This document shows, piece by piece, positions 12,051-45,294 of a stretch of 64,000 nucleotides of DNA. This DNA is from Nitrosopumilus sp. (GTDB lineage: Archaea; Thermoproteota; Nitrososphaeria; Nitrososphaerales; Nitrosopumilaceae), in assembly GCA_965223425.1 (NCBI GenBank), contig OZ245003.1, positions 1,664,001 through 1,728,000 on the forward strand, written 5' to 3'. Below the pieces are notes generated by a model that saw only the letters and a list, made by a program, of their open reading frames with translations, was not told the origin of the DNA and did no database searches. How positions within the stretch are numbered: the first letter of the stretch is position 1; every line of letters begins with the position of its first letter. Position numbers and translations under genes: made by a program.

Positions 12051-13910
12051 ATGGTTGTGGCAAAGAGACAGATAAAAAAGGAGGAGATAAAGTCACTGGC
12101 GCTGCATCCACTGAACATCAGATATGCCTCAGAGGAGTCAGTCCATGGAACCACCGAGCTTGACTCGATACTGTACAAGTATTCCGATTTAATCAACTCC
12201 ATCTCAAGGCCGCTGACAATTGATGCCGTAAAGGACTATGAGACGCTGATGTTCAACAAGACCCCCCATTTGTGCAACTTTGACCGCGTGATATTCAACT
12301 CCTCTGAAAACCTAGAGCCCATGCTGCACTCAAACTCGATGGAATTTTATCCAGTAGAGACAAGAAAGTGGGAGGTCGAAAAGGAACTCTCAGACCACAT
12401 GGTGCTGGCGGGGGGAATGCACTGCAAGATGTACACCCTTACAAACATGCATGCCGAGCTGCCGCCCGGATGGATTTACGAGCCGTTTTCCAATTCCGAT
12501 TTTCTGAGAATATTCATCAAGCCCGTCCCAAAGGAAAGGCACCTAAAGACAATCAACTCACACAAGTCACTGCAGGCCACCAGGAGCTCGGCCGAAGACA
12601 TGGACCAAACTGACGACGTGGCGGCAATCAGGGAGCTTGTACTGAATGCAAAGACTGACAACCTGTTCTCAGTTATAATCAATGCGGGAATTCTGGGGAT
12701 TGATGCCGAATCCATGCAGGAGAAAATAAAGGAGTTTGAGGCCTCTGACAACAAAAACAGAACAGAGATGTACTCCATGAAGAACGTGCAGTCAAAGTTT
12801 CTGCGCGGACAGATGGGACAGAAGCACCTGATGGTCCGCAGCTCAATGCCCGCACTCATTCCGTTTGTAACATCGGAGATTTATGAGGACGGCGGATGTC
12901 TCCTGGGGCGCAACATGATTACCGGCAACCCGGTAAAGTGGGACATCAACCAGAGGATCAACAGGAATACAGTCCTGGCAGCAACGTCGGGTTCCGGCAA
13001 GACCACCCTTGCAATGATGATAATCCACGCGTTTGAGAAGATGTATCCGGACACCTTCATCTTCGTGATTGATCCCGAATCCGAGTACAGGGCCTTGTCT
13101 GACAACATGGGATTCCATTATTTGGACTATTCATCGGGAACAAAGCTCGGGTTTGACGTGTTCAAGATGGTGGCAGACCCCATCTCGGCGGTAGAGACGC
13201 TCTGCGATGTGCTGCAGGTGCCCTCACTTGATCGGACCCTGCCGTTCCAGGCGGCGGCCAGGATGTCGATCAGAAAGGAGGACAGGGACTTTTTCAAGTT
13301 TTATGATGAACTGGTAAAGCTGGAGGAGGGCTCCCATGGCGCCACGCCATCGCAGTATTTCTCAATTCTGGCCGAGCCGCCATTCAATACGCTGCTGCAG
13401 GGCAGGCCGCCAACTGACAACAAGATTGTACTCTCACTCAAAAACATAGGAAGTGCGGGAGGCGCGGTGCAGAGAATTATCACGCAGATTGCCCTGGCAT
13501 ACGCGATGGGAAAGTCGCTGATGATGCCCAAGATTGTGCCAAAGCTCTTCATGTTGGACGAGGTCTGGATGCTTCTCCAGCACGAATCCCTTGGAAACTA
13601 CATACAGAACCTCTCAAGGCGCGGAAGAAAATACAACATAAACATGATGATGGCATCGCAGAACATCGAGGACATGACAGAGAACCCGGCGGCAAGAAAC
13701 GTGCTGGTCAATTCGGACACGGTGATGTTTCTGAGGCAGTCTGAAACCACTCTAAAGTCCCTTGTCACGCATTTCGTGCTGTCTTCGGAGGCTGCAACTA
13801 CTCTGATGCGGCTGAAGGTGGGGCAGGCGATGATAAAATTCGGGAATAGCATGGTACCGGCAAACGTAATGCCCGACGAGGAGCAGCTCAAGCTCTTCAA
13901 GCCAAAGTGA
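12051..13910 (+). CDS. virB4: VirB4-like conjugative transfer ATPase
   Basis: Walker A ATSGSGKT, 'IDPESEY', Walker B MLDEVW, 'RRGRKYN', 'ASQNIED'. Confidence 0.8.
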   Translation: MVVAKRQIKKEEIKSLALHPLNIRYASEESVHGTTELDSILYKYSDLINSISRPLTIDAVKDYETLMFNKTPHLCNFDRVIFNSSENLEPMLHSNSMEFYPVETRKWEVEKELSDHMVLAGGMHCKMYTLTNMHAELPPGWIYEPFSNSDFLRIFIKPVPKERHLKTINSHKSLQATRSSAEDMDQTDDVAAIRELVLNAKTDNLFSVIINAGILGIDAESMQEKIKEFEASDNKNRTEMYSMKNVQSKFLRGQMGQKHLMVRSSMPALIPFVTSEIYEDGGCLLGRNMITGNPVKWDINQRINRNTVLAATSGSGKTTLAMMIIHAFEKMYPDTFIFVIDPESEYRALSDNMGFHYLDYSSGTKLGFDVFKMVADPISAVETLCDVLQVPSLDRTLPFQAAARMSIRKEDRDFFKFYDELVKLEEGSHGATPSQYFSILAEPPFNTLLQGRPPTDNKIVLSLKNIGSAGGAVQRIITQIALAYAMGKSLMMPKIVPKLFMLDEVWMLLQHESLGNYIQNLSRRGRKYNINMMMASQNIEDMTENPAARNVLVNSDTVMFLRQSETTLKSLVTHFVLSSEAATTLMRLKVGQAMIKFGNSMVPANVMPDEEQLKLFKPK

Positions 13911-16627
13911 TGACACCGGTCAGTAACGACTATTCCGTGATTGGGTACGTCGGGGACAATGCGGATTCGGGCAGGCCTGTGGGGAAGAAAACCGGCAACC
14001 GGCATTCCGGGACGGAATGCGCCGGGGAGAGGATGCTCTCCATTCCAAACAAAATCAGGCAGAACTTTGCAATTTTCGGGGAGATTGGTTCGGGCAAGTC
14101 CTCGATACTGCGGCTGCTGATACTCCAGGACATCCAGGCCGGGAGGGGGTTTCTCCTGGCTGAAAACCACAACGAGCTGTCAAGGGAGATACTCTCAATG
14201 ATTCCGCCCGACCAGTACCACAAAATCGTGTATGTTAATCTGACATCGCTGAGAAAATGGGACAAGACGATGCGCTTTAATCCGCTGCGGTGCGATGATC
14301 CGGTGGATTCTGGGATGGTGGCGCTGACATTCACCGAATGCATGGCAAGGGCGTTTTCTGACTCGTGGGGGGCGCGTGTCGAGACGTGCACCAGGAACGG
14401 CGCCCTTGCAACGATTGGCACGTCAAGCAATACCATCGGAGTCATGCTGAAGCTGCTCACTGACAAGGCCTACCGGGAGGCCTTTGTTCCGACCATACAG
14501 AACAAGCAGGCAAGGGACTTTTTTCTCCACGTGTACGACGAGCAGTATCCAAAGGAGGCAGGAGGTGTCGTCTTCAACAAGCTTAACAAAATGATGACAA
14601 TCCCGGAGATGGATGCGATGTTCAACACCAGCAAGTCGTCAATTGACTTTGCCAAAATAATCGATGAGGGAATGTACGTCATACTTGATTTTGGCGGAGG
14701 CCTCCCCGATGATATGGTACGGTTTCTCGGAAACGTCTTCATGCACCTGTTCTATACCACATACAGGAAGAGGGTCAAGGAGCCTGACGGCACCTACAGG
14801 CCGTTTAACCTGTATCTGGACGAGGTGCAGACGTTCTCGCCATCAATGATTCGTGAGCTGCTCAATACCGTGAGAAAATACGGCATCAAAATGACGGTGG
14901 CAACGCAGTCGGTATCTGCACTGGACAGGGACCTCTCCGACGAGATTGCCACGCTGTGCCGCGCAATTGCGTGCTTTAGGTGCGACGTAAAGACTGCCGC
15001 ACACCTCAAGGCCATACTTCCGTGTACCGTGGAGAAGCAGCAGGCACTGTCATGGCACGTCTTCTCGTTTTATTCCGGAGGGGATTCGCCAATAAAGGCA
15101 GTAGCCAGGACAAGACACCTGCAGGTAGCGCAGAGGTGGGAGCAGGCGGCAAGATCCAGCGTGGAGAGGCTTGGGGAGTTTGTCTCACTGGAGAAATACT
15201 ACAACCAGTCCGGAGGAAACGCCGAGGTGTTGCTGTCCCCGCTCGAGTTTGGAATACTGAACTACCTTCGCATGGAGAACAGGGACGTTTCACGGGACGA
15301 GATAACCAAGGTCATGACAAGAAGGTACAGGACTGATGCCAGAACAGTGGCTTCTGCGATAAATGACACGCTGATTGACTCGCACCATTTTGTCGAAAAG
15401 CACGACATACTCACCGATGACGGGGACAGCAACTTTGAGTCGAGGTACTCTGTCACGTCCACTGCAATCAAGATTGTATTCTCAAAGGCGGCCTCGGGCA
15501 GACGTGCGGGAGGGGACATGCACCTTGCAATGATATTCATGATTCAGGACGTGCAGATGAACCTCGGAAATTACTGCGTTGTGGACAGGGGGACTGGCGC
15601 TGCAAGGCATGCCGACCTGCTGATGTTTTCCCCAGAGAAGATAAGGGACGGCGAGGGAAATGAGATAGCATACCACCCTCACGAGTGGTCAAAGGATATA
15701 ATCGCAGTAGAGGTGGAGACTGCCCCTGGAAAGCACATGGAGCAGGTAGTCACAAACTACAAGAAAAACCACGAAATGGGATACTTTTTGCAGTTTGTAG
15801 TTTTTTCAGAAAGTGACAAGGAGAAGATAGTCAACGCGTTCAGACACGCAAAGATAGGCCAAAAGGAATACTCCATCACGGTCATGAACACGGGCATTCT
15901 GACCTCAGTGGATATGAACTCTGAATCAGTAAGGCAGTTCAGCCCGATACAGACATCGATATTTTCCATTCTGTTAAACGCCGGCGGAATGGCAGCAGAG
16001 CAGTACATCATTGACAACTCATGGAGACACGAGCCAAAACATATCATGGAAACCCTTGCCTCCATGGCAAAGAAGGGCGAGCTTGGGTCTGAGGAGAGGC
16101 AGATCCAGAACCCGTCCAATCCCGATGATCCGTCCGACAAAAAGACAGTAAGGATGTGGAAGCTGGCAGGATACTCTTCCTCTGCAAACAAGAAAAAAGA
16201 CGAAGAGAAAAGAGACGGCGTGGCACCAAAGCTGACAGAGGACACATTTTCCGTATCACGACCTGAGCCGATGGGGCTGTACAGCAGGGACCACTATGAT
16301 CCCGATCCTGGGAAAAAAGACAGGGGGACAGAAGAGGACTCGGAAGCGAAGGGAATGGTACGGCAGTCTGTGAGGGGGGCATGTCCACAGAAAGACAAGG
16401 ATACGGAACCGGAGAAGGCCACGGAACGGAATCATGATGACATCTACCGGGATCTTGATGAGAACATGCTGCTTGACATTTTCATCGCACACGACGTAAA
16501 CGACGAAAAAGAGGACATGCGGAGAATAAGGGAGGTGCTCAATGTGCGCGGGTTCTGCATCAAGCGGCGCGGCCACAACAACTTTTTTGTTGCAAAGATT
16601 CCAAAAAAGAAAAATTCCTCAAGGTGA
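13907..16627 (+). CDS. virD4: VirD4/TraD-like coupling ATPase with long C-terminal extension (possible wHTH + PD-(D/E)xK-like domain)
   Basis: GEIGSGKS, 'RFNPL', LYLDEVQ, 'RKYGIKMTVATQS'; extension carries 'HADLL...IAVEVET'. Confidence 0.75.
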   Translation: MMTPVSNDYSVIGYVGDNADSGRPVGKKTGNRHSGTECAGERMLSIPNKIRQNFAIFGEIGSGKSSILRLLILQDIQAGRGFLLAENHNELSREILSMIPPDQYHKIVYVNLTSLRKWDKTMRFNPLRCDDPVDSGMVALTFTECMARAFSDSWGARVETCTRNGALATIGTSSNTIGVMLKLLTDKAYREAFVPTIQNKQARDFFLHVYDEQYPKEAGGVVFNKLNKMMTIPEMDAMFNTSKSSIDFAKIIDEGMYVILDFGGGLPDDMVRFLGNVFMHLFYTTYRKRVKEPDGTYRPFNLYLDEVQTFSPSMIRELLNTVRKYGIKMTVATQSVSALDRDLSDEIATLCRAIACFRCDVKTAAHLKAILPCTVEKQQALSWHVFSFYSGGDSPIKAVARTRHLQVAQRWEQAARSSVERLGEFVSLEKYYNQSGGNAEVLLSPLEFGILNYLRMENRDVSRDEITKVMTRRYRTDARTVASAINDTLIDSHHFVEKHDILTDDGDSNFESRYSVTSTAIKIVFSKAASGRRAGGDMHLAMIFMIQDVQMNLGNYCVVDRGTGAARHADLLMFSPEKIRDGEGNEIAYHPHEWSKDIIAVEVETAPGKHMEQVVTNYKKNHEMGYFLQFVVFSESDKEKIVNAFRHAKIGQKEYSITVMNTGILTSVDMNSESVRQFSPIQTSIFSILLNAGGMAAEQYIIDNSWRHEPKHIMETLASMAKKGELGSEERQIQNPSNPDDPSDKKTVRMWKLAGYSSSANKKKDEEKRDGVAPKLTEDTFSVSRPEPMGLYSRDHYDPDPGKKDRGTEEDSEAKGMVRQSVRGACPQKDKDTEPEKATERNHDDIYRDLDENMLLDIFIAHDVNDEKEDMRRIREVLNVRGFCIKRRGHNNFFVAKIPKKKNSSR

Positions 16628-22016: not shown

Positions 22017-22025
22017 CATGCAGCC

Positions 22026-22120
22026 GGCGATGACGGAATCCGGCACACCATTGGCAGTCCGAACAGTCGATATGTCAAAGTCGAGTTATATGGGTTGACT
22101 CCCGATAACTTCACAGAACC
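22026..22120 (+). mobile_element. Second copy of IS200/IS605-like right end (no transposase)
   Basis: Close match to 11885..11979; similarity stops sharply after CAGAACC. Confidence 0.6.
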
Positions 22121-22835
22121 CGTAAGATAAATAAAAAGAAAAAATAAAATTAAAGAGAGGAGGGGATGATTCATGCCAAGGATATACTATTATTGCGAAA
22201 AACATTATGAGCATTTTGATGAGTGTAACATACGTCACATAAGAGAGCTGACAGACAACACGTGCGTATGCGAGTATAGAAGATGTACAATGCGTGGCAG
22301 GTGCATGATTCTTCTTCGTGTTGACTAGATTAGATTTTGATGCAACCAAACAACAAAAATACGAGTGCCTGTTAGAAGTACTGAACTAGAATGATCACAC
22401 AAAAAGATGAAAGTATTGTTGAAGATATTGTCTTTGATGATGGCGACAAAATAGAAATAGCATGTTCATATCCAGATGTGGAAACTGCCATAAAGGCATT
22501 ACACGCTTTTTTTATTGATTTCAAAAAACAACACACAAACCAAGGTTCTGTATAATCTTCGAGAGCTGAAATATGGATCTTCTCCGAATTGAAATTAGGC
22601 ATGTTGATTCAATGAGGCATTTTGAATTATTGTCCTCCATTTGTTATTTCTGTCTACTACAACACCAGCTAATTCGGCTGGTGTCTTCTTGCCAATCCCA
22701 CCATGATCCACATCTCATGTACCGACAACGTTACAGAACCTCATGATCACCAGCTTGATATTTGCCTAGATAGATCTGTTTTGTTTTCAGGCGTACCGCA
22801 CATCGAAAATTAATATGTAAGAAAAAGAATCAAAG

Positions 22836-22904
22836 AATGAGGGCTCAGAGGTCGTCTCACTCATCACAGAGTCAGAAGTCGTTGGTCTCATCATTGCCCT
22901 CATT
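22836..22904 (-). ncRNA. Box C/D sRNA
   Basis: Minus strand: AATGAGGGC-a-ATGATGA(C)-gaccaacgactt-CTGA(D')-ctct-GTGATGA(C')-gtgagacgacct-CTGA(D)-GCCCTCATT; 9-bp terminal stem, 12-nt guides. Confidence 0.88.
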
Positions 22905-22996
22905 TCTGTTTGATTCGTCTTATCCCTATATAGATATAAACCAAATATAAAACTATCTCTATTAAGGTATAAATTACAGTGCCGTAATTATAGATT

Positions 22997-23206
22997 ATGC
23001 CGATAACTACAAAGACGGTAAGTGGTGAAAGATACATCTACTTTTCACATTATAAGAATGGCAAAAAAAAGGAAACATATTGCGGACTAGCCTCAAAACC
23101 TGAATCAAAAAGAAAAGCAGTAGATCTCGAGATCATCAGTCTGAAAGAACAGCGAAAAACAATATTAGATAAGATTAGAAAATTGGAGGTACAAAGACAC
23201 TTATGA
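22997..23206 (+). CDS. Small basic putative DNA-binding protein
   Basis: 'TKTVSGERYIYFSHYKNGKKKETYCG' beta-sheet motif + coiled coil, common in archaeal MGEs. Confidence 0.55.
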   Translation: MPITTKTVSGERYIYFSHYKNGKKKETYCGLASKPESKRKAVDLEIISLKEQRKTILDKIRKLEVQRHL

Positions 23207-23239
23207 AGTTTGGATATAAGCCCAGTGGAAGCGGACATA

Positions 23240-23270
23240 AGCTTCCAATAGCTTCCAATAGCTTCCAATA
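23240..23270 (+). repeat. Tandem 10-bp repeat (AGCTTCCAAT x3)
   Basis: Directly visible just upstream of the RM gene. Confidence 0.85.
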
Positions 23271-23291
23271 TACTATTAATGGTGTTGCCCT

Positions 23292-26027
23292 CTGGTAGCA
23301 CCAGAGAATCTATCTCTGGAGGAGATCAAGACAAATGCCATAAATTTTTCAGAGAGATGGAAAAATGAAAAGAATGAAAAATCAGAGGCCCAGACCTTTG
23401 TTAATGAGTTCTTTGCAGTGTTTGGGTTAGATAGAAAGACAGTTGCAAGATTAGAAGAGCACCCAGATAATTCACCTGATTGGATGGATTGCTTTTGGAA
23501 GAGCAAATTAATAATTGAGATGAAAAGTCTTGGAGAAAATCTAGATAAGGCAATGGAGCAGGCACTCAGTTATTATGTACAACTGAAAAAAGATGAAGAG
23601 CCACGACACATACTGGTTTGTGATTTTGAACACTGGTATATTCGTGACAAAAAAGAAAACACAGATCACTTTTTCATACTATCTGAACTAGTTGATAATA
23701 TAGGGCTTTTTGGGTTTATGACAGACAGACCTAAGCTGATACGTGCAGATCCTGTAAACTTGCATGCATCAGAAACCTTAGGTAAAATCTTTAACATGTT
23801 AAAAGCAGCTAACTATGGGACTCATCATACAGAATACTTTTTGACAAGGCTTGTGTTCTGTCTGTTTGCTGATGACACTGGCATATTTGGTGATCATGGT
23901 AAATTTCAAGCCTACATTAAAGAATCTACCTTGGAGGATGGCTCTGATTTAGGCCGTTATCTCGCATACTTGTTTGGCGTACTAAACCAAGACAGAGACA
24001 CACGCTCCAAAACAATGGACTCTAAAACTCGTTCATTCCCATACATCAACGGTGCGTTGTTTGAAAAGCCAATAGAGTTTCCTGATTTTAATGGCAAGAT
24101 GAGAGAGTTATTAATTCAAGCAGGTGACTATGACTGGTCTAAAGTATCACCCGCAATTTTTGGCAACATGTTCCAGACCGTAATGGATCAGGATGCACGC
24201 CGTGAGATGGGGGCTCATTACACCAGTGAGGAAAACATACTCAATGTCATCAGACCGTTGTTTTTGGATAAACTAAATGAGGAATACGACGAGATAAACA
24301 GCATAGCTGATGATGCCAAAAAAGCCAGATTTGTAGAATTTCAAAACAAGCTTGCAAGCTTGACGTTTTTAGATCCTGCATGTGGCAGTGGAAATTTCCT
24401 AGTAATAGCATACAGGGAAATAAGAAGATTGGAGCACCGTGTGATTATGAAGATACATGGTTATGCGGGCAAAAGAACGGATACTGACGGATTATCAAAG
24501 GTAGATGTAAACCAATTTTATGGAATTGAGATAATAGAATTTTCCTCTCGTATTGCAGAGACATCGCTTTGGATGATGGATCATATTATGAATGTGGAAT
24601 TATCAAACAGATACGGATATAGATTTAGAAGGATACCAATTAAGAAAAAACCCAATATTGTATGGAAAGATGCATTGGAGTTTGACTGGAACGAACTTCT
24701 GCCAAGTGAGGAATGCTCTTACGTATTTGGGAATCCCCCGTTTGGCGGTTCAAAGACGATAACTAAAGAGCAGAGAGGGCAAGTACAGCGTATAGCGAAT
24801 ATTGAAAGAAGCGGTGGAACGTTGGACTATGTTACTGCATGGTTTTTTAAGGCATGTGAGTATATACCACACACCAAATGTCCTCAAATTGCATTTGTGT
24901 CCACTAACAGTATAACTCAAGGAGAACAGGTAGGGCAGCTGTGGCCCGCTATGTTTGAAAGGCATGGTGTGGAAATATCCTTTGCATATCAGTCATTCAA
25001 GTGGGAGTCAGAGGCAAGAGGCAGGGCACAGGTGACTGTAATTATAATAGGTCTTACAAGAAACGATGACAGGAAACGACTATTCCATTATGATGACAAT
25101 GGAAATCTCATTGAGATTAATCCTGAATGTATCTCCCCCTACCTAATTGAAACATCAAAGACACTTCCGATAGTAATGGAGACATCAAAACCACTCAACG
25201 GTTTCCAAAAAATGAAGATGGGTTCTAAACCCATAGATGGCGGAAATTACATTTTTACCAGTGATGAAAAGGAGAAATTTCTTGCAGAAGAGCCAAACGC
25301 AAAAGATTTTTTCAGACCGTATGTAAATGCGGATGAATTTCTGAATGGCAACATGAGATCAATCTTGGCATTGCATAATATTGAGCCACATGAGCTGAGA
25401 AGACTGCCGAGAGTTATGAAACGAGTTAACTTGGTGAGATTATTCAGAAAGAAAAGCATAGATAAAGGAACAAAAAAACTGGCGGATAATCCTACATCTT
25501 ACCATCTTAATGTGATACCTACGTCCACATTCCTGATTATACCACGTGTTACTTCTGAGAAACGTGAATATGTGCCAATAGGTTTTTTGGAGCCTCCTAT
25601 AATACCTAGTAGTGCCACTATGGTTATAGAGAATGCCTCTCTTGACATGTTCGGACTTTTGACTTCAAAAATGCACATGATATGGCTTAGAACAGTTGGT
25701 GGCAAGCTGAAATTTGATCTTAGGTATTCTAAAGGAATAGTATACAACACATTCCCAATTCCAACTGATTGGAGTGAAAAATCAAAAACTTTGTGGCCAT
25801 ACGCACAATCCATACTTGATGCCAGAAAGAGTCATCCCGAGTCCACATTGGCAGACCTCTATGATCCGACGGCAATGCCAACTGACCTGAAAAATGCACA
25901 TCAAAAACTGGACAAGGCTGTGGAGAAATTATACAGGAAAAAACCGTTTGAATCAGACAGTAAGAGGCAGGAGTTCCTGCTGGAAGAGTATCAAAAGATG
26001 ATAGATGATCATCAAACTACTTTATAG
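23292..26027 (+). CDS. MmeI-like type IIL restriction-modification enzyme (endonuclease + m6A MTase + TRD)
   Basis: 'MDCFWKSKLIIEMKS' PD-ExK; 'GAHYTS', 'LDPACGSGNF', 'GNPPF', 'TLADLYDP'. Frame is open upstream of 23418 with MmeI-like 'EKSEAQTFVNEFFAVFG', so the true start is uncertain. Confidence 0.88.
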   Translation: MVAPENLSLEEIKTNAINFSERWKNEKNEKSEAQTFVNEFFAVFGLDRKTVARLEEHPDNSPDWMDCFWKSKLIIEMKSLGENLDKAMEQALSYYVQLKKDEEPRHILVCDFEHWYIRDKKENTDHFFILSELVDNIGLFGFMTDRPKLIRADPVNLHASETLGKIFNMLKAANYGTHHTEYFLTRLVFCLFADDTGIFGDHGKFQAYIKESTLEDGSDLGRYLAYLFGVLNQDRDTRSKTMDSKTRSFPYINGALFEKPIEFPDFNGKMRELLIQAGDYDWSKVSPAIFGNMFQTVMDQDARREMGAHYTSEENILNVIRPLFLDKLNEEYDEINSIADDAKKARFVEFQNKLASLTFLDPACGSGNFLVIAYREIRRLEHRVIMKIHGYAGKRTDTDGLSKVDVNQFYGIEIIEFSSRIAETSLWMMDHIMNVELSNRYGYRFRRIPIKKKPNIVWKDALEFDWNELLPSEECSYVFGNPPFGGSKTITKEQRGQVQRIANIERSGGTLDYVTAWFFKACEYIPHTKCPQIAFVSTNSITQGEQVGQLWPAMFERHGVEISFAYQSFKWESEARGRAQVTVIIIGLTRNDDRKRLFHYDDNGNLIEINPECISPYLIETSKTLPIVMETSKPLNGFQKMKMGSKPIDGGNYIFTSDEKEKFLAEEPNAKDFFRPYVNADEFLNGNMRSILALHNIEPHELRRLPRVMKRVNLVRLFRKKSIDKGTKKLADNPTSYHLNVIPTSTFLIIPRVTSEKREYVPIGFLEPPIIPSSATMVIENASLDMFGLLTSKMHMIWLRTVGGKLKFDLRYSKGIVYNTFPIPTDWSEKSKTLWPYAQSILDARKSHPESTLADLYDPTAMPTDLKNAHQKLDKAVEKLYRKKPFESDSKRQEFLLEEYQKMIDDHQTTL

Positions 26028-26122
26028 ACACAATTTCTTGATTCAGAGAAGATCAGTATTTCATACCTATATCACTACAAGTTGACAGAACCAATCAAAG
26101 GAATCCTTAACTTGTATGACGT

Positions 26123-26362
26123 ATGAAACATGCTATGAATGACGATACTGCCGACTGCACAAGTGTTATTCTTATTTATGCTGGTATTTTTATGATGATG
26201 GCAGGAGCACTCGTTACAATCATCTGGATTGAGCTTGCCGTCGTAATTATGGTGGGAGGTGGCATACTATTAATGGCATCGGGGGTCATTGGGATGGCGT
26301 ATGGAGGCCTTGGATGGGAATATGTCCCAGAGGATGTGAGAAAAAGACAGACAGAGGACTGA
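26123..26362 (+). CDS. Small two-TM membrane protein
   Basis: 79 aa, two hydrophobic helices. Confidence 0.5.
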   Translation: MKHAMNDDTADCTSVILIYAGIFMMMAGALVTIIWIELAVVIMVGGGILLMASGVIGMAYGGLGWEYVPEDVRKRQTED

Positions 26363-26689
26363 TCAGATCACACAAATTCCCGAACCAGTCAAGTACATGG
26401 CAGGTATGACGGCATATTGTACGTAAGATACTGAAATATCCTGTTTTTATCCTATTTCCATATTTTTAGATGTGAGAACAAGAATGCAGACAAACTGCAA
26501 GTACTGTGGCGGTAGGAATTATTATCACCTTTATGAAGATTCGATGCCGCTTGATAGCAGGTCGTGGCTGTATTGCATGGACTGTGGATTTACGCGTCCC
26601 GCATGAGAACACGCGTACCCGGCGTTTCATGAGGTATGGGGTTCTCTAAAAACAATAATACTGTTCATATGCACCATTCAACATAAGCG

Positions 26690-27757
26690 ATGAACGATGC
26701 ATTCTGGATGGAACATATCAGGGGATGGATGCGGATGGAGCACAGACAGAGGCCGTGCCGCCTGGTATGTCTTGTGGAAGACGAGGGCGAATTTGACACA
26801 ATACGGACAATGGCCGAAGGGCTTGGAGTCGGCGCAGTATCCGTATATGACGACTCGTGGACAATGAATCCCACGTCACATGCAATTATAGTTGGAACAC
26901 ACGATGAACTGCTGTCGCGCTCACTGGATCGCGGGTACGGTGTAAAACCTGCCATGTGGCACATACAGTTTGGACTGTTAAATTCCGACTGTCTGTGGAC
27001 AATGAAATCCCCAAACCGTGTCTGGTGCGGTCTTGACTCGCTACATAAAAAATTGGGTGCATACAACATATTCTCTGATACAAAAGTGACTGATGCGGCA
27101 GACATTCCCATACGTGGCCTGTTTGACGTATCGGGTGGAACAGAAGACGACATCGAGGAATTTATGATGGGGTTCCCACACCATGAGACTGAACAGCATG
27201 AGAGGATGGTGCAGGGCACGAAATGGGTGACTCTTCCCAGGCATCTTTCGCAGACAGTTACGGCCGTACTGGATCTTGCAGTCAACAAGAGGTTTGAAGG
27301 AACGCTGCTGACTGCCGCCAGATATCATGATTATGGCAAGTCACATCCTCTTTTCCAGAAAATGCTTCTTGGTGGACTTGATCAAAATGAGAGAATGTCC
27401 AGGGCCGGAACAGTGTGGGCCAAGAGAAGGCCCAGAACCAGACTGGAATGTGCAGGTTACCGCCACGATCTGACAGGTGCGTGCGCCTTTGTCAGCACAA
27501 ATCCCGACATGTTGCTTGAGGGATATCTCATCATGTCACACCACGGCAGGTTTTATTTTTCAATTCCCAAAGTCAGTGACAGGCTGCCAAAAACGGATGT
27601 CGGCGGCGGCATTATTGTTGGCGACACCTCGTTTGAGATGACCCAGGACAAATGGGGCGCAATATTTGATCAGCTGTACAGAACACACGGGCCGTTCGTG
27701 CTGGCGTACCTTGAGGCGGTCCTGCGCGTGGCCGACATGAGGGCAAGTGATCTGTAG
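26690..27757 (+). CDS. cas3: Internally deleted type I-G Cas3-like protein (helicase remnant + C-terminal HD domain)
   Basis: 'IIVGTHDELLSRSLDRGYG...IQFGLLNSDCLW' (I-G Cas3 helicase segment); 'LPRHL', 'YHDYGK', 'GYRHD', 'SHHGR', 'LAYLEAVLRVADMRAS'. Walker A and DExH are absent. Confidence 0.7.
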   Translation: MNDAFWMEHIRGWMRMEHRQRPCRLVCLVEDEGEFDTIRTMAEGLGVGAVSVYDDSWTMNPTSHAIIVGTHDELLSRSLDRGYGVKPAMWHIQFGLLNSDCLWTMKSPNRVWCGLDSLHKKLGAYNIFSDTKVTDAADIPIRGLFDVSGGTEDDIEEFMMGFPHHETEQHERMVQGTKWVTLPRHLSQTVTAVLDLAVNKRFEGTLLTAARYHDYGKSHPLFQKMLLGGLDQNERMSRAGTVWAKRRPRTRLECAGYRHDLTGACAFVSTNPDMLLEGYLIMSHHGRFYFSIPKVSDRLPKTDVGGGIIVGDTSFEMTQDKWGAIFDQLYRTHGPFVLAYLEAVLRVADMRASDL

Positions 27758-27891
27758 TGTGTGGATGTCAGAAGGAATCAGACAAACTGCATGGTTACCA
27801 AGTATGGTTGCCAATCATGGCCGATGAAGGCGGAACATAATCTATATTCTGCCCCCACTTCAATTGAGACATGCCTGTTTGGCGTCCTATT

Positions 27892-28170
27892 CTAGAGAAA
27901 GTCCGGGTCGTCATCATCTGTCGGAATCTCCGACTTTTGGCCGCCTGTGTGATTGTTGTCTCTTTCTGTTTTTATTTTGTCATTTATTTCCGCAATCACA
28001 TCCAGGTCAAGGCGCTTTAGGATCATCTCTGCATTTTCTACAAGAAACCGGACATCGTTTAAAATGCCGTCAATCTTTCTCCTGGTCCTTAATTTCTGAA
28101 GCCTTAGTCTTCCAGGCGAAAAAGAGTCAGGTGAGACAATCGCCCGCTTTTGTTTGTCAGTTAGTGCCAT
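27892..28170 (-). CDS. Small protein coupled to ParM-like gene (candidate ParR-like adaptor)
   Basis: ATG at 28170 overlaps the end of the actin gene; basic N-terminus, acidic tail. Confidence 0.45.
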   Translation of the reverse strand: MALTDKQKRAIVSPDSFSPGRLRLQKLRTRRKIDGILNDVRFLVENAEMILKRLDLDVIAEINDKIKTERDNNHTGGQKSEIPTDDDDPDFL

Positions 28171-29015
28171 TTCTGCGCCTTTGTAAGCATCCCAAGCGCA
28201 TTTGAAAATACTGGGTCCCTTGCTATCTGGCACTTGTCGCGTATTGCCTCATTTTTTATCTCAGAGACAAGCTTTGGTATCAGTGCCCCGCCTCCGGCCA
28301 GAATCACAGGAAGTTCCGGAAAGTCAATGACTGTCTTTGTCAGGGAATCAGATATAGAGTCTGCAAGAAGCTTTCTGTACTGTGAGAGCTCCGGAGTGTC
28401 CTTTGCAAACAGGCTCTTCTCCTTGACGTATCCGGTCTTTGTGTCAGTTATTGCAGAGGTGATGTCTCCGACTCCGTGATCCAGTGTCAGGCCTGAGGCT
28501 ATCTTGCCATTGACTACTGCCATTATCTCAGTGGTTCCATGTCCGATGTGGCACACAATACCGTCCTCCAATCCCTGGTGGATGAGGGTGGCCCTTGCCT
28601 GGTATATGAGCCCAAAGAACTTTGGTCCAAGCGCCTTCATTACTGCCTCGCGAATCTTTTTGCTGTGGTCCCTTGCAGCATATGGGACTCCTGCAACGAT
28701 GACCATTTGTGCATACCTGCCAACGGCAGATGTCCTGGGGGTTCCGAGGATCTGGTCCATTGAGTATTTTATCAGGCTGATATAGTCCTCCATTATTGTT
28801 GGAATCCCGCGATATACGGGCCTCTTTAGTGTCATTGTTTTTATGGTTTCATATTTTGCAGCATCGTATCCGATGTGTGTCGTATCCTTGTTGTTTGACT
28901 CTAGCTCCAGGTGCCTGCCAGTGGCAATTAGTGACGGGAACTTTGTCAATCTGGTCGATGTTGCAATCTTTACAAAGCCGGTTCCAATGTCGAGTCCGGC
29001 AACATATTCACTCAT
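28161..29015 (-). CDS. ParM/StbA-like actin-fold ATPase
   Basis: Phosphate-1 'GLDIGTGFVK', phosphate-2 'HIGHGTTE', adenosine 'LAGGGA', 'SNALG'. Confidence 0.8.
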   Translation of the reverse strand: MSEYVAGLDIGTGFVKIATSTRLTKFPSLIATGRHLELESNNKDTTHIGYDAAKYETIKTMTLKRPVYRGIPTIMEDYISLIKYSMDQILGTPRTSAVGRYAQMVIVAGVPYAARDHSKKIREAVMKALGPKFFGLIYQARATLIHQGLEDGIVCHIGHGTTEIMAVVNGKIASGLTLDHGVGDITSAITDTKTGYVKEKSLFAKDTPELSQYRKLLADSISDSLTKTVIDFPELPVILAGGGALIPKLVSEIKNEAIRDKCQIARDPVFSNALGMLTKAQKWH

Positions 29016-29057
29016 TGAGATTGCCGTATCAGTTTTGAATTTAAGGCAGTTTTTGCC

Positions 29058-29291
29058 GTTTCAAAAAAGTGAAACGCCGTTTCACTTTTCCGACGGTTTT
29101 GAATTCGGGGTACTTTTTCCTGAAAAACGGAGATAAAAAAAGGTACTCAATACAACACACATATACAATATAAACAAACAACAAAAAACATCTAAAATAC
29201 AACAACGGCAATCGATAAGGAGAAATCCCAATTAATTATTCCAAATTTTACAAAGTGCGAAAAAATCGCGAATGTTTCACTTTTTTGAAAC
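29058..29291. promoter_or_regulatory. Inverted 18-bp operator-like sites and hairpin in AT-rich divergent intergenic region
   Basis: GTTTCAAAAAAGTGAAAC (29058-29075) and its exact reverse complement (29274-29291); hairpin AAAAGTGAAAC-GCC-GTTTCACTTTT (29065-29089). Confidence 0.55.
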
Positions 29292-29443
29292 GCTTTCTGG
29301 CCAGAATTTCACAGTATGTGATCGTAAATAATTAGAAAGAAAAAGAAAACAAAAAATTCAGAGCAACCAAAAAAATCAGACACCAATCCAAAATCATTTC
29401 AAAAAAATCATTACACCAAAACAGAATCAAGATAATAAAAAGA

Positions 29444-29507
29444 AGGGCCATGATGAGACTCCATTCATTCTGACATCAATATGATGACAGAGATCAGTCT
29501 GAGCCCT
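29444..29507 (+). ncRNA. Box C/D sRNA
   Basis: AGGGC-c-ATGATGA-gactccattcatt-CTGA-catcaat-ATGATGA-cagagatcagt-CTGA-GCCCT; all four boxes canonical. Confidence 0.88.
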
Positions 29508-29590
29508 CAAATTCAATCTAACTGACTTCAATAAAAATCAGACCATACCAAACCAACCACTCATTCCAAGAAAATCAAGATAATAAAAAA

Positions 29591-29653
29591 AGGGCGGTGA
29601 TGAGTTCCATTCATTCTGTCATCATTATGATGATAAACCCCCAGTCCTGGCCC
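29591..29653 (+). ncRNA. Box C/D sRNA, degenerate paralogue
   Basis: GGGC..GTGATGA-gttccattcatt-CTGT-catcatt-ATGATGA-...-GCCC; D/D' boxes mutated; shares upstream AATCAAGATAATAAAAA with the 29444 copy. Confidence 0.6.
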
Positions 29654-29696
29654 CCATTCCCCAGCAACACATACCAATTAAAACATTCAAAAAGAA

Positions 29697-29794
29697 AAAC
29701 ATCCTGATGAGCCCTTTTGGGCCAACTCCAATCAGAACATAACTGGTTTGGATGAGCCCTACTAGGGCGAAACTGCCATTGGCAGTCGATGTTT
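29697..29794 (+). ncRNA. Type I hammerhead ribozyme (extended stem II)
   Basis: P1 AAACATC/GATGTTT; CTGATGA; P2 GCCCT...AGGGC; GAAA; P3 CTGCC-ATT-GGCAG; GTC cleavage after 29787. Confidence 0.85.
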
Positions 29795-30136
29795 CGCAAA
29801 ATACTTTCGCGAGTATCTGGTGGCGAAAAGCTGCCAACAATCAGAAAGGGCACTAAAGAGTATGCCCTAAGAATATTCCTTCGAGGGGGATATGTTCTCC
29901 GTGATGGTTCACGATTGGTATGTTTGCCCACTTGTTATTGGGATCACAAACTAGACCGGCCATACATGGAATGGTTTGAAATAAGCCGAGACGGCACTCT
30001 AACATATTACAGACTAAAGGATTCTGTAAAGGCTGTTGCCGAGTGCAAGGTTGAATCAAATTATGGGTTCATACCAAAAGCCACATACCCTCGTGTCATG
30101 AAGGCCTGTCGGGCTCCATGCAACTCTGGTTGTTAA
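29789..30136 (+). CDS. Hypothetical protein starting 1 nt after hammerhead cut
   Basis: 115-aa ORF; first 12 codons shared with the 30327 ORF. Confidence 0.55.
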   Translation: MFRKILSRVSGGEKLPTIRKGTKEYALRIFLRGGYVLRDGSRLVCLPTCYWDHKLDRPYMEWFEISRDGTLTYYRLKDSVKAVAECKVESNYGFIPKATYPRVMKACRAPCNSGC

Positions 30137-30234
30137 CTGATAATTCCTCTCACGAGGAATATCTTCCCCTTTTTATTAAACTGTAAATTTACAGCATGCC
30201 AAACCGGCATTCCAATGAAAACTTTCAAAAAGAA

Positions 30235-30332
30235 AAACATCCTGATGAGCCCTTTTGGGCCAACTCCAATCAGAACATAACTGGTTTGGATGAGCCCTGC
30301 TAGGGCGAAACTGCCATTGGCAGTCGATGTTT
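30235..30332 (+). ncRNA. Type I hammerhead ribozyme (near-identical copy)
   Basis: Same as the 29697 copy apart from a loop change; cleavage after 30325. Confidence 0.85.
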
Positions 30333-30560
30333 CGCAAAATACTTTCGCGAGTATCTGGTGGCAAAAAGCCACAAACCAAAGAGTGTCCAGATAACATTGT
30401 CTGCATGGAAGACGAAAGAATCGGATACATCGAACGTGACGGTTCGCGGTTGGAACGTTATCCATGGAGATGTCAGCAGGAAGACTACGATAAAGGTTAT
30501 CCAGAACTGAAATGGGCCAACCTCCGGTTAGACAAAGCAGCTTGCAGAGAAGCAAGTTGA
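30327..30560 (+). CDS. Hypothetical protein starting 1 nt after hammerhead cut
   Basis: 77 aa; shares MFRKILSRVSGG and 'RDGSRL' with the 29789 protein. Confidence 0.5.
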   Translation: MFRKILSRVSGGKKPQTKECPDNIVCMEDERIGYIERDGSRLERYPWRCQQEDYDKGYPELKWANLRLDKAACREAS

Positions 30561-31134
30561 CTCAGAGTCTTCATACGTCTTTGGTTACTAACTGATAATT
30601 CCTCTCATGAGGAATATCTTCCCCTTTTTTATTAAACAGAAACTAATTTTACAGCATGCCAAACCGGCATCCATAAATCATTCTTGAAAATATAACATCA
30701 AATCAAACACGGCAATCGCACAGAGACATGCAGATGAGCTTTTTTATTATCATAATTTTATCAATTCAACATCATATTGGGCCAGTGTCCCAATTTACAA
30801 AGGCAAATTTCAGAAAATTTCACGCCATTGCTTCCTTATTATGATGAGCAAGAAAAAAACACCCTATTATCCGCGCATCAAGCGAGAATTTGAGCCCGAC
30901 CCGGAAGACAAGGAAATCTGGTAGGCGCTCATGCCCCTTTTTTTCTATAACATCCATTTGATTGTTTTATCATTATGTACATGCGTTCCGGCATGTCTTT
31001 ATGAAATTGTAATGATGACTGGCACGGGGCGTATGGAATCGCCTGAGTTTCGGACTGTGATGAAACAGTTTGAGCAAAGTCCACACGAGTGCCCACATTC
31101 AATTCATGAAACAGCGAAAGCTTGACCAAGAAAA

Positions 31135-31186
31135 CCATGCCGATGTGCTCTACTTGAGCGAAACAGCCCTTTGTGGCAGTCCATGG
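31135..31186 (+). ncRNA. Type I hammerhead ribozyme, variant core
   Basis: CCATG-CCGATGT-GCTC tactt GAGC-GAAA-CAGCC ctttgt GGCAG-TC-CATGG; core deviates (U4C, A9U); cut after 31181. Confidence 0.65.
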
Positions 31187-31596
31187 AAAGAACCATGACA
31201 AAGAAAGTCAAATTTCTTAAAAGGAGACTTGCCTGTTCCTTGCGTATAGAAAACATCTCTTATCGACTGATGTTTGATTGCGGTCCAATAGGAAGACCAT
31301 ATTCTGCAATCGTTTATCAGCTGATGTTTGATTGCGGTCCAATAGGAAGACCATATTCTATAATCGTGAGTCTAGTCAACAAGCTTCTCAGAAAAGAAAG
31401 ACTCTATCCTAACGACTACGACAGTCCGGATTTTCCTGCATGCTGCAGAAAAACGATTGTTGGGTTGGAAAATACCAGTAGTATTAAGGGCAGCGCATTT
31501 CCTCACAGATGCAAGACCTGCAATAGGGAGTGGCAATACTACTTTGGATATGTGTTGCATAGTAGCCTATTTGGAGAACAGCCAATATGGGACTGA
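31183..31596 (+). CDS. Cys-rich hypothetical protein with internal duplication
   Basis: In-frame ATG at 31183; LMFDCGPIGRPYS x2; CC...CxxC. Confidence 0.5.
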   Translation: MERTMTKKVKFLKRRLACSLRIENISYRLMFDCGPIGRPYSAIVYQLMFDCGPIGRPYSIIVSLVNKLLRKERLYPNDYDSPDFPACCRKTIVGLENTSSIKGSAFPHRCKTCNREWQYYFGYVLHSSLFGEQPIWD

Positions 31597-31728
31597 CCCC
31601 CACTCTTTTTTTCTAATCATATTTTCTTAATTTTAGACACACAACACCTGCAAATAATCAACACATACTTTTTGATTATTTCATTAATGCGGCAAGGCAT
31701 CACCTCTTGCTGTTTTGTAATTCCAACG

Positions 31729-31790
31729 GGGGCCATGATGAGACAGAACAGTTCCGACTCTGTGATGAGTGAGACGACATCCGAGTCCTC
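31729..31790 (+). ncRNA. Box C/D sRNA (paralogue of 22836..22904)
   Basis: ATGATGA-gacagaacagtt-CCGA-ctct-GTGATGA-gtgagacgacat-CCGA; terminal stem. Confidence 0.75.
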
Positions 31791-31867
31791 ATTGTCAGTA
31801 ACTGTATCATTGATTTTAACCTTGGTGCCACTCTGTACAGTCTTGCACCGCTTTGAAAAAATCCAAC

Positions 31868-31981
31868 GGGGGCGATGATGAATAAAATTATGGCCCAATC
31901 TCATGATGAGACACAACAGTTCCACTCCTGGAATCCACCTCCTCCTAGAAGGTTCTGTGACAGGCCGCTATCTGAGCCCCC
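31868..31981 (+). ncRNA. Extended/atypical box C/D-like sRNA
   Basis: GGGGGC stem, ATGATGA, second ATGATGA, long insert, terminal CTGA-GCCCCC. Confidence 0.55.
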
Positions 31982-32000: not shown

Positions 32001-32053
32001 GTCATGCTGATGTGCTCCCAATGAGCGAAACTGCCATTATGGCAGTCCATGGC
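32001..32053 (+). ncRNA. Type I hammerhead ribozyme
   Basis: GTCATG-CTGATGT-GCTC ccaat GAGC-GAAA-CTGCC attat GGCAG-TC-CATGGC; cut after 32047; ATG at 32049. Confidence 0.8.
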
Positions 32054-32714
32054 AAAACAAATTCTCAAACAGATTGCAAAAGCAATCGCAATAACCGTGA
32101 TTGTAGTGATTACGGCATCCATTGTGTGGACATTTGTTGTTCCGATGCTGCCACTGAGCCAAGTGTCAGATATTGTAGAAGAGAATGTGAAAGAGCCGTT
32201 AGAGAAACTTGTTTCACAAACACCGCTTGCACCAGATGAGCAAGTCACAAATGGAACGCCAAAGAACAATGACGCCCCATCGTCATACGATGACATTGAC
32301 GACCCGCCATCGGACATAGTTACCTCATATGATCCACCAGACATGGATTTTCTGAACAGTGGCACTGTAACCAAAGTCATTGACGGCGACACGATTGATA
32401 TCGACAACATGCGATTCAGACTTGCTCTGATAGACACTCCTGAGAGAGGCGAGGCCGGATACAATGAGGCAAGGATGTTCCTGTTGAAGAACTGTCCCGT
32501 ACAGTCGTTGGCACTGTATGATATCGACGACAAACAGAAGACGGACAAGTACGGACGATACATAGGAAAGGTATGGTGTTATGGATATCCACCTGTCGTT
32601 CCTGAAAATTCCATGAACAGCAAACTTGTAAACGAGGGACATGCAGTGGTTGTCTCAACGTTTTGCAGGTCAAGCGAATATGGAAATGAGCAGTGGTTAG
32701 ACCCACACTGCTAG
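32049..32714 (+). CDS. Membrane-anchored thermonuclease (SNase family)
   Basis: 'VTKVIDGDTI', 'RLALIDTPE', 'DKYGR', 'NSKLVNEGHA'; N-terminal TM. Confidence 0.88.
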   Translation: MAKQILKQIAKAIAITVIVVITASIVWTFVVPMLPLSQVSDIVEENVKEPLEKLVSQTPLAPDEQVTNGTPKNNDAPSSYDDIDDPPSDIVTSYDPPDMDFLNSGTVTKVIDGDTIDIDNMRFRLALIDTPERGEAGYNEARMFLLKNCPVQSLALYDIDDKQKTDKYGRYIGKVWCYGYPPVVPENSMNSKLVNEGHAVVVSTFCRSSEYGNEQWLDPHC

Positions 32715-32868
32715 TATTGTTCTCTTTCACATACCATCCCCCCCCTTTTTTTCTAATCAAATTTTTTGTACGGACATCTGATTATTTTTTCGTGACCTGG
32801 CATGTCATCCCAAATCTTGCACCAGTATGTTCAAACATACCTGACAGGCAGGCAAGTGTGGGGATGAT

Positions 32869-32954
32869 GGTGAGTTTACCTAGCAAGGTAAGGTGTCCGA
32901 CTGATAATCGGAATGTCTGTCAGGACAGCGTGGGTTCGAATCCCACACTCACCG
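32869..32954 (+). tRNA. tRNA with GAU (Ile) anticodon on a class II, Ser-like body
   Basis: Acceptor GGTGAGT/ACTCACC + G73; D ACCT/AGGT; AC TCCGA-CTGATAA-TCGGA; long V-arm TGTCT/GGACA; T GTGGG-TTCGAAT-CCCAC. Confidence 0.88.
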
Positions 32955-33009
32955 TAATACTCCTGCATATTAAAACATTCAGGAGAGAAATTCAAAAAAG
33001 TGAACAAAA

Positions 33010-33393: not shown

Positions 33394-33673
33394 TTATTTT
33401 TTCGTGACCTGGCATGTCATCCCAAATCTTGCACCAGTATGTTCAAACATACCTGACAGGCAGGCAAGTGTGGGGATGATGGTGAGTTTACCTAGCAAGG
33501 CCGGAACAGATGGAATTGCAATTGATCCCTCCATCATGACAGAAAATGGAAACCATGCAGCAGAAAACGGACTGCTAAAACCCTGATTATTTTTTCGTGA
33601 CCTGGCATGTCATCCCAAATCTTGCACCAGTATGTTCAAACATACCTGACAGGCAGGCAAGTGTGGGGATGAT

Positions 33674-45292: not shown

Positions 45293-45294
45293 AA

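Follow-up and report, generated by a model that had tools for sequence, protein, structure and literature searches.

The 64-kb stretch of DNA considered here (the window, in which positions are given as plain numbers) lies on contig C1 of a Nitrosopumilus genome of 2.64 Mb in two contigs (G+C 41%, one rRNA operon and, according to ARAGORN, 48 tRNA genes), where it corresponds to C1:1664001-1728000. It contains a group of genes for box C/D small RNAs (sRNAs), which are associated with genes for a ParM-like ATPase and an SNase-like nuclease and with hammerhead ribozymes, and which are carried by an integrated conjugative element (ICE). A preliminary description of this DNA had reported five copies of box C/D guide sRNAs, and the observation of such RNAs is confirmed by direct reading, by pattern scans at two stringencies and by a covariance model. 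When applied to both strands of the whole genome, a strict pattern (RTGATGA N9-14 CTGA N2-10 TGATGA N9-14 CTGA) matched three times, at 22845-22894 on the minus strand, at 29450-29502 on the plus strand and at C1:648289. A relaxed scan, permitting up to two box mismatches and requiring a stem of at least four pairs, returned ten loci in the genome as against 0, 2 and 1 in three shuffled genomes.

Two of the window copies are fully canonical. The first (sRNA 1; 22838..22901, minus strand) reads GAGGGCA ATGATGA GACCAACGACTT CTGA CTCTG TGATGA GTGAGACGACCT CTGA GCCCTCA, with GACCAACGACTT as its D' guide, GTGAGACGACCT as its D guide and a terminal stem of 8 bp; it is situated 5' of a decayed DDE-transposase gene. 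The second (sRNA 2; 29443..29509, plus strand) reads AAGGGCC ATGATGA GACTCCATTCATT CTGA CATCAATA TGATGA CAGAGATCAGT CTGA GCCCTCA, its D' and D guides being GACTCCATTCATT and CAGAGATCAGT. In both, the C box RUGAUGA and the D box CUGA are exact, D' CTGA and C' TGATGA are present, and the terminal stems measure 5-8 bp; the two C-D'-C'-D RNAs with terminal stems that had been described at 22836 (minus strand) and 29444 are therefore the strict window matches. The remaining copies are less regular. In sRNA 4 (31728..31791, plus strand; guides GACAGAACAGTT and GTGAGACGACAT) both D' and D read CCGA, which retains the GA and leaves the gene near-canonical. The degenerate sRNA 3 (29590..29656, plus strand) has the C box GTGATGA, the D' guide GTTCCATTCATT, the D' box CTGT and CTGG where a D box is expected, so that GA is lost from both D' and D. 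A fifth paralogue (31865..31981, plus strand), delimited by eye, is heavily degenerate, having two insertions and a duplicated C box; it is recognisable by the upstream flank and C box that it has in common with the others and by a guide resembling GACAGAACAGTT, and is probably a decayed copy. Neither 29590-29656 nor 31865-31981 retains exact C and D boxes, and the count of five was thus an overstatement: two copies are canonical and one is near-canonical, one lacks the GA of D' and D, and one is heavily degenerate. Guides in the window copies are 12-13 nt and 11-12 nt long, and, as previously noted, some are shared between paralogues (TCCATTCATT by 29450 and 29592, and GTGAGACGAC by the D guides of 22845 and 31735).

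R1, a covariance model made from 13 members of the family, assigns 78.2 bits to 29443-29509, 62.5 to 22838-22901 (minus strand), 61.3 to 29590-29656 and 55.3 to 31728-31791, and at E<=1 does not score the fifth copy (31865-31981). Seven R1 members occur in this genome. At Rfam gathering thresholds, the window yields two tRNAs and nothing else.

The sRNA genes occupy a conserved genetic module. Divergent from them is a gene for an actin/ParM-like partition ATPase (28161..29015, minus strand; Pfam MreB_Mbl, Actin and ALP_N), and the intergenic region between this gene and the sRNAs (29020..29442) contains the palindrome CGTTTCAAAAAAGTGAAACG twice, at 29057-29075 and 29274-29292, which resembles an operator or a centromere. 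(In what follows, G-numbers denote congener genomes, G000 being the genome analysed here, and L-numbers denote fetched loci, such as L018, from a metagenome-assembled genome, and L019, from G007.) Palindromes of other sequence are found at the equivalent place in G007 and G308. The last gene of the module encodes an SNase-like nuclease (32049..32714, plus strand; Pfam SNase, 1.6e-08), a protein that looks exported because its N-terminus is hydrophobic. As judged from tblastn and the fetched loci, the order of ParM-like gene, divergent sRNA or sRNAs and SNase-like gene is kept in G007, G308, G382, G216 and G430, across which the module proteins are 40-55% identical. The sRNA of G007, 700 bp from its ParM-like gene, has the scaffold of 29443-29509 with other guides, and homologues that likewise combine this scaffold with different guides occur in G009, G401, G308 and other genomes. 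In several relatives, the sRNA array seems to form the leader of the SNase transcription unit.

Across the genus, the family has a scattered distribution: R1 detects it in 13 of 105 congeners (each at least 90% complete), and all carriers have genomes of 1.9-2.8 Mb. The 56 R1 matches reduce to 47 distinct sequences from 14 genomes, in which the C box is ATGATGA in 41, the D' box CTGA in 37 and the D box CTGA in 35; TGATGA is present as the C' box in 26, some C' boxes having been wrongly delimited in the alignment to the model. Over the 47 sequences, 97.5% of cells in the six-pair terminal stem are paired, with two compensatory pairs (slid controls, 33-69%), and the D' guide is 12-13 nt long in 40 of the 47 members, among which there are 39 distinct D' guides. 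Such fixity of boxes, stem and spacing, combined with variation of the guides, is the pattern that selection for guide function predicts. Tandem arrays, in which C/D sRNAs of 60-80 nt follow one another at a spacing of 130-300 bp, are frequent. The L018 locus, which was reached by a search with the ParM-like protein, has at least eight C/D units diverging from a ParM-like gene, and in G308 the units form two arrays, one of eight and one of six, repeating about every 130 bp. A scan of IMG/VR with a C-box/stem pattern gave four loci and no family members (best 20.7 bits), and a scan of JGI metagenomes with a stricter pattern gave no matches.

By contrast with this patchy family, a core C/D sRNA at C1:2081077, which can form 10 bp with LSU (large-subunit rRNA) position 2603 (1 of 100 shuffles as good) and 12 bp with pre-tRNA-Met (0 of 100), is found in 39 of 40 congeners at 84-96% identity, with a single match in 38 of them. 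Because this RNA is nearly universal, the genus has core guide RNAs to which the element-borne family is extra; on its distribution, the family is accessory, added beside the core set. The proteins that such RNAs require are encoded by the host. As the preliminary description had anticipated, fibrillarin (PF01269, C1:2157252, 297 bits), Nop5 (PF01798, C1:2156411, 230 bits) and L7Ae (PF01248, C1:426222, 89 bits) are all encoded elsewhere in the genome, far from the window. Nop5 is the sole Nop-domain match in the genome, a search that would miss a very divergent Nop fold. A literature search of limited scope returned no report of C/D sRNAs in Thaumarchaeota or of archaeal C/D sRNAs encoded by mobile elements.

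The window lies wholly within an ICE of about 162 kb, of which the sRNAs are cargo. In comparisons with 20-kb queries from each side, core synteny with congeners stops at C1:1,579,031 and restarts at 1,741,306; of 20 congeners, 12 have the flanks directly joined (to within 25 bp) on a single contig, and G017 has a different insertion, of 42 kb, at the same site. The 11-bp direct repeat TAAACGATTAA is present at both junctions (1579018 and 1741310), 162,292 bp apart, and a tyrosine-integrase gene is located at C1:1579996, 1 kb inside the left end. The window contains genes for a VirB4-like ATPase (12051..13910, plus strand; Pfam TraG P-loop, DUF87 and AAA_10) and a VirD4/TraG-like ATPase (13907..16627, plus strand; Pfam TraG-D_C and T4SS-DNA_transf). 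The attribution of the sRNAs to a mobile element thus stands on the integrase, the direct repeats, the VirB4/VirD4 pair and the empty site in relatives; rather than being core chromosome, the locus is inside an insertion whose site is empty in at least 12 of 20 congeners. Of 24 congeners, eight match the approximately 11 kb surrounding the sRNAs, in fragments only, and 16 genomes from other families do not match it. Close VirB4-like homologues (47-66% identity) occur in nine congeners, seven of which hold the sRNA family as against six of the 96 others, a co-occurrence that, since relatives are non-independent, constitutes an association and not a test. Counting the genome analysed here, the sRNAs are 4-40 kb from the VirB4-like gene in seven of the eight genomes that have both.

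Some members of the family show signs of a second layer of mobility. Together with its downstream flank, sRNA 1 is 84% and 89% identical to C1:648182-648363 and C1:917243-917356, and the flank common to all three belongs to a DDE_Tnp_IS240 transposase gene, of which it is the 5' end. At the 917-kb locus (C1:917177-918340), the sRNA is 48 nt upstream of an intact 345-aa DDE_Tnp_IS240 gene, and the gene is truncated both at 648 kb (647900-648365) and in the window (22372-22835, minus strand). No terminal inverted repeats of at least 13 matches surround the sRNA-transposase unit at C1:917 kb. The 648-kb copy is upstream of the alanyl-tRNA synthetase gene, and its D' guide is complementary over 10 bp to the tRNA-Ala(UGC) anticodon loop (4 of 100 shuffles as good).

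Downstream of the sRNAs, four open reading frames (ORFs) start inside a CUGAUG(A/U)-helix-GAAA-helix-UC motif, the arrangement of a hammerhead ribozyme. A whole-genome scan for type I hammerheads, allowing at most one core mismatch and requiring stems I, II and III of at least 4, 4 and 5, gave three matches, all in the window, and none in five shuffled genomes. Hammerhead A (29697..29794, plus strand; core CUGAUGA...GAAA...UC, extended stem II, z -4.79) is predicted to cleave after C29787, one nucleotide before the ATG of ORF 29789-30136, and hammerhead B (30235..30332, plus strand) is a near-identical duplicate of it, placed before ORF 30327-30560. Hammerhead D (32001..32053, plus strand; core CUGAUGU, 59.3 bits) precedes the SNase-like gene, with predicted cleavage after C32047, one nucleotide before the ATG at 32049. 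The hammerhead-like copy C (31135..31186, plus strand; 54.9 bits) has the core CCGAUGU, with two core deviations, and one mismatch in stem III, and its predicted cleavage site is one nucleotide before the ATG at 31183. At core position 9, copies C and D both have U; copy C also departs at position 4, which is C. The canonical type I core (CUGANGA/GAAA/UH) is found in window copies A and B and in G382, G308, G433, G353, G436 and G430; in G382, G308 and G430, the hammerheads are at homologous positions and combine canonical cores with different stem sequences. In an alignment of five hammerheads, whose structure was derived from the same sequences, pairing holds in 98.6% of cells, and compensatory change is seen at 7 of the 16 pairs (slid controls, 22-37%). 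Minimum-free-energy folds contain the three-way junction in four of six cases, copy C forming it by centroid only and the G308 copy folding otherwise. The Rfam model HH9 gives hammerhead D 18.8 bits, below its gathering score of 52.

A covariance model of the hammerhead (R2) finds the motif in 6 of 105 congeners, and four of these, along with the genome analysed here, hold the sRNA family; the distance from the last sRNA to the ribozyme downstream of it is about 40-90 nt in G433 and G308. Further copies are at L058:945-992(-), L025:837-884(-) and L018:78-123(-). A 17.2-bit R2 match that was without stems II and III was rejected as false. The placement relative to the downstream gene is invariant: the start codon lies within stem I, and the ATG begins one nucleotide after the predicted cleavage site in all 10 distinct full-length matches and both partial ones, from seven genomes. 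Because cleavage would occur one nucleotide before the ATG, the released message would be essentially leaderless, and the hammerhead probably cuts the mRNA of the SNase-like gene free. The SNase homologue of G007 (L019, approximately 1813-1860) has a GGAGG Shine-Dalgarno-like leader where other elements carry the hammerhead; on this comparison, the exchange is a natural swap between two predicted modes of translation start. In the passages considered of Perreault et al. 2011 (PMC3088659), hammerheads of prophages cut transcripts into single genes, and one in the haloviruses HF1/HF2 is 13 nt before a start codon. Those passages describe a comparable situation, in which several hammerheads per mobile element are placed to split a long transcript, and do not mention a fixed minus-one placement; the present case differs from HF1/HF2 in its thaumarchaeal host, in having the start codon in stem I and in the cut at -1 in 12 of 12 matches. 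A literature search of limited scope gave nothing relevant on hammerheads in Thaumarchaeota, and no natural ribozyme-made leaderless archaeal mRNA appeared among the titles and abstract openings that it covered.

To identify possible targets, guides were slid along LSU and SSU (small-subunit) rRNA and all tRNA precursors, with 100 shuffles per guide, and only pairing that ran without interruption through the fifth guide position counted from D or D' (the target nucleotide being opposite that position) was accepted. The clearest case is GTTCCATTCATT, which occurs in 29590-29656 and at C1:1832566 and forms 11 Watson-Crick pairs with LSU 2066 (GCGCAUG[A]AUGGAAC; 0 of 100 shuffles as good). The claim that TCCATTCAT(T) is antisense to host LSU rRNA, for which complementarity of at least 9-10 bp was sought, is accordingly sustained, at 11 bp for GTTCCATTCATT and 9 bp for GACTCCATTCATT. 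The fifth-nucleotide rule directs this guide to the A in AUG[A]AUGG; we take LSU 2066 to be equivalent to about A1969 of E. coli, in helix 71. When searched as a box-guide-box pattern with up to two mismatches, the LSU guide was present in the genome analysed here and, among 88 congeners with a completeness of 95% or more, in two (G308 and G397). The element also contains, outside the window at C1:1606616-1607100, nine perfect 54-bp tandem repeats, each with AATGAATGGAAC, a 12-nt sequence exactly complementary to the LSU guide GTTCCATTCATT; one reading frame is open through the repeats, which could reflect chance, iterons or a decoy target.

Several guides recur between genomes. D' guides of the TCCATTCATT group are found in the genome analysed here and in G308, G433 and G397, those of the GGCGTTGAT group in G007, G308, G433, G382 and G430, and those of the TCTGGC(G/A)AT group in G009, G401, G382, G216 and G430. 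The sequence GTGA(A/G)ACGAC is found as a D' guide in G395 and as a D guide in G397 and in sRNAs 1 and 4 of the window, and an orthologue of sRNA 1 in G397 has one change in each guide. The best rRNA sites of the recurring groups are LSU 2066, SSU 908-911 (GUCA[A]CG[C]CAGA), presumably the helix 31 loop, and SSU 1348 (CCCGU[C]GUUUCAU), which we assume to be the decoding-centre C equivalent to E. coli C1407. A proposed pairing of GACCAACGAC with a tRNA T-arm was not upheld: its best tRNA match is 9 bp including one G-U, in the tRNA-Tyr precursor, and under the stricter rules its best match over rRNA and tRNA is 7 bp, which 93 of 100 shuffles equal. A genome-wide search for mRNA targets of the orphan guides gave 10-11-nt matches only, in about the number expected by chance; three of them are on contig C2, in paralogous coding sequence.

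We consider it probable that these are genuine archaeal box C/D guide sRNA genes, conserved as cargo of a Nitrosopumilus-like ICE family, whose D' guides are directed at functional centres of rRNA. When 33 distinct D' guides are pooled, their best rRNA scores have a mean of 8.24 as against 7.73 for shuffled guides (sd 0.16; 0 of 200 shuffled sets as high), and nine guides score at least 9 as against a shuffled mean of 4.0 (2 of 200 as high). Several considerations weigh against this interpretation. The pooled test counted related guides as independent and let the rRNA of a single genome, the one analysed here, stand for all; the corresponding mean for 34 D guides, several of which were clipped by the model alignment, is 7.21 as against 7.27 for shuffled ones (129 of 200 as high). 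Within the window, one guide family alone has a target beyond chance: the canonical 29443-29509 reaches only 9 bp at LSU 2066 with GACTCCATTCATT (31 of 100 shuffles as good), and the six other guides (both guides of sRNAs 1 and 4 and the D guides of 2 and 3) are matched by 23-93 of 100 shuffles. The holder of the best LSU guide, sRNA 3 (29590-29656), may itself be dead, because it has lost the GA of D' and D. Three of the family's members in this genome are encoded elsewhere than on the element, and six family-positive genomes have no close VirB4 homologue, which leaves the link with the ICE strong and not exclusive. Every match to the Rfam C/D families is below gathering (the best, sRNA 1 to sR1, at 31.2 as against 45 bits), although these families are lineage-specific, so that such scores bear on which family is present and not on the class. 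With respect to expression and methylation, none of the eight listed sequencing runs that hold the locus is on record as RNA.

A possible alternative is that small, easily copied C/D genes, moved in part by an IS-type transposase, accumulate and decay without serving the element. We regard this as doubtful, though several observations favour it: three of the five window copies have degenerate boxes, sRNA 1 and its 648-kb and 917-kb paralogues share a transposase-gene flank that is intact only at 917 kb, the G308 arrays combine near-identical repeated units with broken C boxes, and the targets of most guides are no better than chance. Neutral passengers, however, would not be expected to keep their position between ParM-like and SNase-like genes in at least five other genomes whose proteins are only 40-55% identical; boxes, stem and a 12-13-nt spacing are also held while guides vary, guide families recur between genomes and D' guides are enriched in rRNA matches. 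The same conserved guides argue against a purely structural role, in which the kink-turn (K-turn) RNAs bind L7Ae to stabilise, mark or terminate the 5' part of the transcript, or titrate L7Ae, and the guides are irrelevant. Such a role might be suspected from the location of the sRNAs in an apparent leader of the SNase unit, directly upstream of the hammerhead in G308, G433 and G382, and from the orphan status of most guides; yet guides of 12-13 nt in 40 of 47 members, conserved guide families and an 11-bp rRNA match of correct geometry are none of them needed structurally, and we consider this explanation very improbable.

The remaining alternative, to which we assign if anything still less weight, is that the dual-guide units, and especially their D guides, direct an effector yet to be recognised at competing elements, as in a TIGR-like or new RNA-guided system. 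According to the TIGR-Tas report (PMC12045711), those systems consist of 36-nt RNAs with alternating repeats and 9-nt spacers, an adjacent Nop-domain Tas protein and DNA targets. Both they and the present arrays are tandem dual-guide RNAs on viruses or mobile DNA, and TIGR arrays are structurally akin and evolutionarily linked to box C/D ribonucleoproteins (RNPs); moreover, the D guides here are variable and without rRNA enrichment, and a nuclease gene follows the array. Guides of 11-13 nt are too short for searches of sequence collections. On the other side, the units are full K-turn C/D sRNAs at intervals of 130-300 bp and not the 8-12-nt repeats with 9-nt spacers described in that source, and no alternating-repeat array is present. 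The ORFs beside the sRNAs have no Pfam match, and hence include no Tas-like gene by that measure, the only PF01798 match in the genome is host Nop5, and the SNase-like protein has the hydrophobic N-terminus of an apparently exported enzyme.

In the interpretation as guide sRNAs of an ICE, the sequences themselves show the anatomy, the conservation of the family, its accessory distribution, its location on the element, the synteny of the module, one significant rRNA duplex and the presence of the host machinery, and we infer expression, RNP assembly, methylation and any benefit to the element. The sRNAs would be transcribed from the region divergent to the ParM-like gene, singly or as tandem arrays, upstream of the SNase-like gene and, having no protein partners of their own, would assemble with host L7Ae, Nop5 and fibrillarin. 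Their D' guides would aim at host rRNA, in the best case at an adenosine in LSU helix 71, with two candidate sites in SSU rRNA at the level of the family (the helix 31 loop and the counterpart of E. coli C1407, a decoding-centre C). The element would thereby give the rRNA 2'-O-methyl marks absent from most congeners, and a leaderless mRNA would be released by the hammerhead from the sRNA-SNase transcript. A possible benefit is that ribosomes would be shielded from inhibitors or toxins that need an unmodified site, or that initiation would be tuned to the leaderless mRNAs of the element. The first interpretation, in which the element redirects host methylation, thus survives in its mobile element, its dependence on host proteins and its LSU antisense guide, and loses its tRNA T-arm target. 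A bolder version, which strikes us as unlikely as it stands, is that the module is a programmable ribosome-editing cassette: it would place element-specific marks on the decoding centre, the P-site loop and an intersubunit helix, and would be coupled to hammerheads that make leaderless mRNAs, such that the modified ribosomes favour the messages of the element or resist toxins, while D guides may hit RNAs of rival elements.

In their organisation, the sRNAs resemble known archaeal ones. The families sR1 (RF01152) and snoPyro_CD (RF00095), from Sulfolobus and Pyrococcus, have the same C-D'-C'-D order, guides of about 12 nt, a stem, a length of about 60 nt and cell-encoded L7Ae, Nop5 and fibrillarin; the present genes differ in being ICE-borne, in their restriction to 13 of 105 congeners, in often being tandem and in scoring below Rfam gathering. 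Clustered and plastic archaeal C/D sRNA genes that use the transcription of their neighbours, and that are apparently chromosomal, have reportedly been described (Tripp et al. 2017). To the extent that this account goes, the likeness lies in having several sRNA genes in a row, which are here element cargo at a fixed syntenic place. The element itself resembles the thaumarchaeal ICEs of Krupovic et al. 2019 (PMC6563490), which are characterised by a VirB4/VirD4 pair, an integrase, att repeats as short as 8 bp and a median size of 64 kb. Both are large, have short att repeats and include a basal-transcription-factor paralogue; the present element is larger, at about 162 kb, and where those ICEs are described as having TFIIB with a ParB-like neighbour, the larger window ORFs scanned include a TBP-domain ORF, by Pfam a TBP paralogue (17509-18018), and the ParM/actin-like gene. 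The words 'sRNA' and 'ribozyme' are absent from the main text of that article.

Other features of the element can be described briefly. Between sRNA 1 and the ORF at 26690-27757 is an MmeI-family restriction-modification gene (23418..26027, plus strand; Pfam MmeI domains). This adjoining ORF, of 355 aa, has a weak match to the Cas3 HD domain (E 1.6e-4, below cut-off) and may encode a defence-related nuclease. The window also holds a TrbC-like ORF and an ArdC-like gene. A tandem duplication (45292-47546 and 47540-49794, 89% identical) contains adjacent ORFs of 762 and 786 aa without Pfam matches. A repeat of about 220 bp, resembling a miniature inverted-repeat transposable element, occurs at 11763-11979 and 22022-22123 and in about 15 copies over the chromosome at 79-94% identity, and a 40-bp repeat (57213-57252 and 57287-57326) recurs at about 20 other chromosomal sites at 92-100% identity. 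Within tandem duplications at 32778-35600, the element carries two genes called as tRNA-Ile(GAU), at 32868-32955 and 34002-34091; a third, weaker one is at 33674-33756. The two genes have G73 and a long variable arm and are nearest to host tRNA-Ser, and a normal host tRNA-Ile(GAU) is encoded at C1:2245190; a tRNA of Ser-like class II form whose anticodon is that of Ile could lead to misreading of Ile codons or may act as a decoy.

In archaea and eukaryotes, box C/D guide RNAs are regarded as housekeeping genes. The entire family described here is accessory, being borne by conjugative elements within a fixed module and in tandem arrays, and at least one of its guides is predicted to aim at a site in host LSU rRNA for which 86 of 88 congeners have no such guide. 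The linked hammerheads would represent a natural case of ribozyme-made leaderless mRNAs. Accessory DNA that adds a ribose methyl at a functional site of rRNA has a precedent in the thiostrepton-resistance enzyme Tsr, a stand-alone protein rRNA 2'-O-methyltransferase with a demonstrated resistance phenotype; the analogy differs in that here an RNA guide would redirect a host enzyme. If the marks are made, horizontal transfer would change the modification pattern of the ribosome, providing an RNA-guided counterpart of the resistance methyltransferases, and ribosome heterogeneity would be a transferable trait in these abundant ammonia oxidisers, which suggests that mobile DNA can reprogram the modification of its host's ribosomes.

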